Assembly (NCBI RefSeq): GCF_003334405.1
Contig: NZ_QOWM01000002.1
Direction: 5' to 3' (one strand)
DNA: 64,000 bases
Source of the DNA: Escherichia coli
Lineage (GTDB): Bacteria > Pseudomonadota > Gammaproteobacteria > Enterobacterales > Enterobacteriaceae
Each line of letters opens with the position of its first letter. Positions within the stretch are counted from its first letter, which is position 1. The notes beneath the pieces were generated by a model, which saw only the letters and a program-made list of their open reading frames with translations, was not told the DNA's origin and did no database searches. Shown here piece after piece: positions 40,257 to 40,455 of this stretch. A program made the translations under genes and the position numbers.

Positions 40257-40286
40257 TTGACAAAATGTGGCGTGGATCACTATAAT
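40257..40286 (+). promoter_or_regulatory. consensus sigma-70 promoter upstream of metY
   Basis: TTGACA (40257..40262), 18-nt spacer, TATAAT (40281..40286). Confidence 0.6.
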
Positions 40287-40378
40287 GCCTGCAGATTTTA
40301 CGTCCCGTCTCGGTACACCAAATCCCAGCAGTATTTGCATTTTTTACCCAAAACGAGTAGAATTTGCCACGTTTCAGG

Positions 40379-40455
40379 CGCGGGGTGGAGCAGCCTGGTA
40401 GCTCGTCGGGCTCATAACCCGAAGGTCGTCGGTTCAAATCCGGCCCCCGCAACCA
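40379..40455 (+). tRNA. metY: initiator tRNA-fMet (anticodon CAU)
   Basis: CGCGGGGTGGAGCAGCCTGGTAGCTCGTCGGGCTCATAACCCGAAGG...CCCCGCAACCA: C1-A72 mismatch and three G-C pairs in anticodon stem. Confidence 0.95.

Follow-up and report, generated by a model that had tools for sequence, protein, structure and literature searches.

The window, by which we mean the whole 64-kb stretch of Escherichia coli DNA that was analyzed, carries on its plus strand the initiator tRNA gene metY followed by rimP, nusA and infB, with rbfA, truB, rpsO and pnp lying 3' of infB according to the open reading frames and the MG1655 annotation (Table 1). The promoter at the center of this analysis, P-1, has argG, metY and rimP as its neighbours; a segment of 671 bases around it shows 100% identity with many E. 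coli chromosomes and finds a match in all 5426 complete genomes of this species. A preceding inspection of the DNA without database searches (the sequence-only reading) had recognized an initiator tRNA at this locus. ARAGORN and Rfam both call the gene, and direct reading of its sequence (CGCGGGG...CCCCGCA-ACCA; anticodon arm GGG-CUCAUAA-CCC) reveals the hallmarks of an initiator, namely the CAU anticodon, the C1 x A72 mismatch and the GGG/CCC anticodon stem. That this tRNA heads a rimP-nusA-infB operon, as also proposed there, agrees with the published co-transcription of the metY tRNA with these three genes. Since the operon joins an initiator tRNA, a ribosome maturation factor, NusA and IF2, its control bears on the matching of translation capacity to growth.

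Between positions 40020 and 40680, the window differs from the chromosome of K-12 MG1655 at a single base, 40425, which corresponds to position 46 of the tRNA and is G in the window and A in K-12. A difference between K-12 and B strains at this position of the metY tRNA has been described (PMC3017606), and the G46 of the window is the fMet1 type found in E. coli B, unlike the A46 of the K-12 metY gene. G46 is the majority form within the species: the segment 40410-40480 containing it is identical in 4703 of the 5426 complete genomes. The K-12 form is therefore possible in at most 723 genomes, and the one such genome that was read differed elsewhere.

Table 1. Features of the argG-metY-rimP region and of the leuU locus upstream of it. 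Positions are those of the window; column conservation refers to the 57 P-1-carrying loci with argG upstream.
Feature	Position	Strand	Basis and remarks
Intact leuU (36510-36596) with its own terminator (36604-36633)	36510-36633	+	left end of the proposed insertion, 3.7 kb upstream of the remnant
Tandem ARG boxes, 3 bp apart	40083-40100 (1 mismatch); 40104-40121 (3 mismatches)	.	consensus scan; operator of divergent argG
Third ARG box (2 mismatches)	40223-40240	.	ends 17 bp upstream of the P-1 -35 hexamer
DNA upstream of P-1			column conservation 30-45%
P-1 -35 hexamer, TTGACA	40257-40262	+	column conservation 100%
P-1 spacer, 18 nt	40263-40280	+	column conservation ~45%
CRP-like box, TGTGGCGTGGATCACT (2 mismatches)	40266-40281	.	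within the P-1 spacer, overlaps the first base of the -10 hexamer
P-1 -10 hexamer, TATAAT	40281-40286	+	T1, A2, A4 and T6 (four of six positions) 100% conserved
P-1 discriminator GCCTGC (40287-40292), then +1 adenine A40293	40287-40293	+	published start sequence located in the window; discriminator column conservation 40-70%
P-1 leader, including the leuU remnant	40294 to tRNA	+	column conservation ~93%
leuU 3'-end remnant and trailer	40302-40328	+	direct repeat of 36579-36604; column conservation ~93%
P0, TTTGCA-18-TAGAAT (9/12)	40334-40363	+	published core maps to 40332-40373; position kept in both gene arrangements
Initiator tRNA-fMet (metY locus)	40379-40455	+	ARAGORN tRNA-Met(CAT); Rfam tRNA, 61 bits; G at position 46 (40425), tRNA-fMet1 type
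P2, published core, -10 TATACT at 40481-40486	40455-40496	+	exact match to the sequence in the PMC6511841 Fig. 5 legend
Long hairpin, RNase III substrate	40472-40522	+	-16.7 kcal/mol, z = -3.05
rimP leader, Rfam RF01770	40544-40644	+	102 bits (gathering score 47); holds a small hairpin and both terminators
Terminator t1	40577-40606	+	stem 40577-40600, 10 pairs (5 G-C), then TTTTTT; -14.1 kcal/mol
Terminator t2	40625-40644	+	5-bp stem (4 G-C), then seven Ts; -7.4 kcal/mol; conserved across loci
rimP	40662-41114	+	ORF, MG1655 annotation
nusA	41142-42629	+	ORF, MG1655 annotation
infB	42654-45326	+	ORF, MG1655 annotation

When both strands of the window are scanned with the sigma-70 consensus, P-1 is the only site that matches at 12 of 12 hexamer positions, and no site with 11 matches is present in the 64 kb; first-order Markov simulations yield a mean of 0.015 perfect sites per window. 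The TTGACA-18-TATAAT promoter that the sequence-only reading had placed before metY, with coordinates that are all correct, therefore exists as described. The attribute "textbook" given to it there is deserved by the perfect hexamers but is slightly generous with respect to the spacer, since the optimum for sigma-70 promoters is 17 nt and the spacer of P-1 is one nucleotide longer. A length of 18 nt is nevertheless kept in every genus that possesses P-1.

A promoter with these properties has already been reported for this operon (Granston, Thompson and Friedman 1990; re-examined in PMC6511841), and it agrees with that of the window in its hexamers, in the 18-nt length of its spacer, in its discriminator and in the adenine at +1. 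The published 44-nt core of P-1 agrees with positions 40254-40297 at 43 of its 44 bases; the one difference lies in the spacer, where the window and MG1655 have G and the sequence in PMC6511841 has A. The published +1 adenine corresponds to A40293, and a start site about seven nucleotides past 40286 had been anticipated from the sequence; the distance is indeed 7 nt. Taken as a whole, these data are best explained if the promoter in the window is the published P-1 of the E. coli metY-rimP-nusA-infB operon, a reading to which we assign a probability of roughly 0.95, and nothing speaks against this identification. According to published work, RNA polymerase containing sigma-70 recognizes the consensus hexamers, and transcripts from P-1 have been mapped by primer extension. 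The 86-nt leader of the resulting transcript (40293-40378) does not fold better than shuffled sequences (z = -1.06), so that we do not claim a structured leader.

P-1 varies little within E. coli. Its 56-nt region is identical in 3375 of the 5426 genomes, and a further 2003 (~37%) have about one mismatch. In both of the genomes of the latter group that were read (n = 2), the change is a G40272A substitution in the spacer that leaves the hexamers intact; this variant is the form printed in PMC6511841, and position 40272 is the center of the CRP-like box. One of these two genomes has a second substitution, T to C at 40342, in the spacer of P0.

Primer-extension stops have been reported not only for P-1 but also for P0, whose -10 hexamer ends 16 nt before the 5' end of the mature tRNA, and for P2, which sits just after the metY tRNA (PMC6511841). 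Among fusions of single promoters to cat, that of P-1 gave by far the highest level of mRNA, and P-1 was accordingly called "a very strong promoter", whereas P0 and P2 were found to be weak; two additional promoters, P3 and P4, were reported further downstream (PMC6511841). Genomic SELEX with RpoD includes TTGACA-18-TATAAT, assigned to metY--pnp, among the constitutive promoters, bound by the holoenzyme without accessory factors, and has another constitutive-promoter entry, its hexamers not given, in the metY-rimP spacer. Transcription begins at three places around the tRNA, at P-1, just before the tRNA at the weaker P0, and just after it at P2. The proposal of the sequence-only reading that the tRNA, NusA and IF2 stand under common upstream control is borne out as far as their co-transcription is concerned, but that control is not the only one acting on NusA and IF2, since P2 comes after the tRNA and P3 and P4 further downstream.

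Published work has cAMP-CRP and ArgR lowering the expression of metY (PMC3017606, citing Krin 2003), and P-1 is hence a regulated and not simply a constitutive promoter. Three ArgR binding sites at the operon are mentioned in PMC3334882, in agreement with the three ARG boxes seen in the window, one of which (40083-40100) is the sole site with a single mismatch in the 64 kb. A single CRP site common to metY and argG is listed in PMC3105977, and the position of the CRP-like box in the P-1 spacer fits this shared site, which makes the box a candidate for it. Only its 3' half (TCA) is conserved across genera. Since the CRP pattern is not enriched over the whole window (178 matches, 226 expected), the box in the spacer is meaningful through its position and the literature alone. 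Judged by this position, CRP bound there might occlude RNA polymerase. The P-1 discriminator, six bases of which five are G or C, precedes the +1 adenine and has been called a stringent box (PMC6511841); such a GC-rich element would render the promoter sensitive to ppGpp. A literature search for control of metY by Fis returned nothing, and a Fis-like sequence, noticed by eye and centered some 72 nt ahead of the start of P0, is a matter of speculation.

An alternative account of how the two upstream promoters share their task has to be weighed. In ordinary growth, P0 and not P-1 might be the main source of the metY and operon transcripts, with P-1 being largely held down by CRP, ArgR and ppGpp and becoming important in cold shock or in rich medium. 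In a strain deficient in RNase III the signal of P0 rises far more than that of P-1 or P2, which indicates that most of the processed molecules come from P0. At 37 °C, moreover, the primer-extension signals of P-1 and P0 are weak, and a fusion containing all three promoters produces less cat mRNA than P-1 alone, two observations that call for caution about the share of P-1 in vivo. The reported lowering of metY expression by CRP and ArgR points in the same direction, as does the fact that P0 is the promoter common to both gene arrangements described below. Against this account stand the cat mRNA levels driven by P-1 alone, the binding of holoenzyme to P-1 without added factors, the invariance of its hexamers in 57 loci in which the flanking DNA drifts, and the authors' own warning that primer extension is not quantitative in this case. 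We consider a dominant P0 unlikely, if still worth serious thought.

It is much less probable that the P-1 site serves mainly to regulate the divergent argG gene, either through competition for polymerase or through the shared CRP site, with its output into metY being a by-product. Such a role would suit the CRP site listed for both genes, the ARG boxes beside the promoter and the restriction of P-1 to loci with argG upstream; yet the mapped P-1 transcripts run into metY, and it is the leader from 40294 to the tRNA that is conserved at about 93%, whereas no such conservation is seen between P-1 and argG. That P-1 is a chance match to the consensus devoid of promoter activity, a notion that could draw on a local consensus scan (4 promoter-like sites, 3.7 in shuffled sequence), is refuted by primer-extension mapping and reporter fusions in the literature and is at odds with the 0.015 perfect matches expected per window and with the conservation across genera.

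The published metY promoter P-1 thus remains our reading of this site, and several elements further along its transcription unit can be recognized in the window. A hairpin just beyond the tRNA is a substrate of RNase III; the site located by RNA-seq at MG1655 position 3318176 (PMC5371410) falls at 40492 of the window by coordinate mapping. Cleavage by RNase III is known to release the tRNA and to leave a 5' end that resembles that of the P2 transcript, and the cut within the hairpin both frees the tRNA precursor and starts the downstream mRNA's decay. The rimP leader that follows (RF01770) was found in each of the 20 related loci tested. Its small hairpin (40544-40559) covaries in an alignment of 32 genera, with an AU pair changed to GC in 12 sequences and a CG pair changed to UA in five.

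The sequence-only reading had allowed for only a leaky terminator at 40578-40602. A hairpin followed by a run of Ts is present there, but it is the first (t1) of two terminators in tandem, both of which are named in PMC6511841. Terminator t1 is invariant in the 32 genera, so that there is no covariation to draw upon, and the folding energy of t2 (-7.4 kcal/mol) is indistinguishable from that of shuffled sequences. According to published work, the two terminators stop a part of the transcripts. More operon transcript is found where NusA-dependent termination is reduced (PMC6511841; Bylund 2011, as relayed by a citing paper), which argues for feedback of NusA on its own operon and for a leakiness that is regulated. 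P0, P2, t2 and the RNase III hairpin that separates the tRNA from the mRNA were all absent from the earlier interpretation; it is in essence the standard account of this operon, though an incomplete one, and we regard it as partly supported.

RNAalifold, applied to the 32 genera, proposes in addition an invariant helix between 40564-40571 and 40622-40629 (GGTTCAGT with ACTGGGCT) that encloses t1; as predicted, it would come into competition with the 5' arm of t2. A second proposed pairing, likewise invariant, joins the 3' arm of t2 to the G-rich ribosome-binding region of rimP; with both pairings invariant, covariation offers no means of assessing them. Minus-strand matches to the Rfam families STnc430 and RsmY scored below their gathering thresholds and were set aside.

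The evolutionary setting of P-1 was viewed through a scan for RimP that, with one genome per species, provided 80 loci from the Enterobacterales. The argG gene lies upstream in 59 of these loci, and 57 of them have a promoter of the form TTGACA-18-TAnAnT, its -10 hexamer ending 91-97 nt (mostly 92-93 nt) before the tRNA. This arrangement is represented by genera that include Escherichia, Citrobacter, Salmonella, Klebsiella, Raoultella, Enterobacter and Kluyvera; most of the loci also have P0, and within the set of 80 loci P-1 is confined to it. In 16 other loci, metY is preceded by secG and by an intact tRNA-Leu(GAG) gene, leuU, that ends 59-60 nt before metY; among them are loci of Buttiauxella, Cedecea, Atlantibacter, Franconibacter, a Pantoea and a Mixta isolate, along with a small number of isolates labelled as Citrobacter or Enterobacter. 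All 16 lack P-1, and their leuU-metY spacer holds a P0-like promoter only; in the one such locus that was scanned, no terminator is predicted between the two tRNA genes.

Three loci represent a third arrangement, in which a different promoter is situated about 88 nt before the tRNA (TTGCAA-18-TATAAT in L028 and L035, TTGAAT-17-TATAAT in L071) and the leuU-derived sequence described below is missing. One of them, L071 from Enterobacter sp. kpr-6, has two tandem tRNA-fMet genes before rimP (positions 222-422). In Trabulsiella guamensis (L017, positions 1270-1300), an intact rimP leader follows a metY gene that is reduced to its last 14 nt (GGCCCCCGCAACCA) and preceded by AT-rich and unrelated DNA; a separate event appears to have inserted DNA into the 3' end of this initiator tRNA gene.

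The leader of P-1 in loci with argG upstream is colinear with the 3' end and trailer of leuU in the other arrangement, as a shared block (GTCCCGTCCTCGGTACCAAATCCCAGCA) in the cross-species alignment makes visible, and it is too highly conserved to reveal covariation. In the window, the same relationship exists between the leuU remnant ahead of P0 and the end of the intact leuU gene. The gapped local alignment of 40302-40328 with 36579-36604 has a score of 35; shuffled sequences score 14.2 +/- 2.3, with a maximum of 27 in 2000 trials. Two indels had hidden the repeat from a gapless repeat finder, and it was the cross-species and gapped local alignments that brought it to light. In representatives of Citrobacter, Salmonella, Kluyvera, Raoultella and Shimwellia, the leuU-end repeat is exact over 28 nt. 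Between the two copies lie the leuU terminator, an AT-rich stretch, yhbX, argG and P-1 itself, which starts 9 nt before the remnant.

The Pantoea and Mixta loci, labelled Erwiniaceae, have leuU beside metY, and for this reason we take the adjacency of these two genes to be probably ancestral and the arrangement with argG to be an insertion. The gene order of Pseudomonas is presumably secG, tRNA-Leu, tRNA-Met and rimP. P-1 occurs only with argG upstream, abuts the leuU remnant and is absent where leuU adjoins metY, and it consequently looks like a promoter at the edge of an insertion. We therefore put forward, tentatively and as somewhat short of an even chance, that P-1 is an outward-facing promoter at the right junction of an old argG insertion (yhbX and argG in E. 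coli) into an ancestral secG-leuU-metY-rimP array, and that the conserved leuU remnant implies a function that has gone undescribed. P-1 would either have come with the argG-carrying insertion into the leuU-metY spacer or have arisen at its right edge, where it may replace read-through transcription from secG and leuU, and P0 would be the ancestral metY promoter. The comparison would in this manner account for the presence of two promoters before metY in E. coli, P0 being ancestral and P-1 connected with the argG insertion.

The remnant, like the rest of the 85-nt leader, is conserved at about 93% although it is no longer part of a tRNA, which is what implies a function. It is likeliest to have been kept because it belongs to the upstream region of P0, as is also the case in the arrangement taken to be ancestral, or because it serves in the processing of transcripts from P-1. 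No mention of an origin of P-1 at an argG insertion or at a leuU remnant was found in the searchable literature, whose reach does not extend to the older primary papers.

Two further observations concern the 3.7-kb segment between leuU and metY. Its part from 36600 to 37800, which comprises the DNA after leuU and the 5' portion of yhbX, is AT-rich, with 36-40% G+C as compared to ~50-55% in the flanks, and this is consistent with a foreign origin of that part. An exact 14-nt direct repeat, AGTATTCAACAAAT, occurs at 37060-37073, near the start of yhbX, and at 40201-40214, in the argG-metY intergenic region; a back-of-envelope estimate puts the chance expectation for repeats of this kind at about 0.04 in the 4.7 kb.

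The layout of this segment resembles that of genomic islands targeted to tRNA genes and bounded by attL and attR sites. As in such islands, a repeat of the tRNA 3' end, here 26-28 nt of leuU, flanks the yhbX-argG segment, the intact tRNA gene marking its left end and the remnant its right, with the ancestral downstream sequence beyond. It differs from them in carrying a housekeeping gene, argG, in the age of the event, which many genera have in common, and in the lack of an integrase or other mobility gene from the 3.7-kb leuU-metY segment, which contains only yhbX and argG according to the ORF list and the MG1655 annotation. Without an integrase, the segment should in our view not be filed as a mobile island, and the resemblance is one of layout only.

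With the promoters of stable RNAs, such as rrn P1 and those of tRNA operons (e.g., metZWV), P-1 shares strong hexamers, a GC-rich discriminator, a tRNA as its first product and a proposed sensitivity to ppGpp. In the rrn P1 promoters the spacer is typically 16 nt long and the -35 hexamer imperfect, whereas P-1 combines perfect hexamers with a spacer of 18 nt. P-1 also differs from stable-RNA promoters in its additional input from CRP and ArgR, in the protein-coding genes that follow the tRNA, and in that its control by ppGpp is proposed only. The Rfam family RF01770, which stands for t1/t2 and NusA-dependent attenuation, belongs to the same transcription unit as P-1 but describes its downstream part and not the promoter.

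As for the published metY P-1, the window represents the same locus with no functional difference. The identification of P-1 is thus correct but ordinary and already known, and it adds nothing to about forty years of study of the control of this operon; the fresh and modestly interesting value of our analysis lies in its evolutionary part, that is, in the origin proposed for P-1 and in the conserved leuU remnant.
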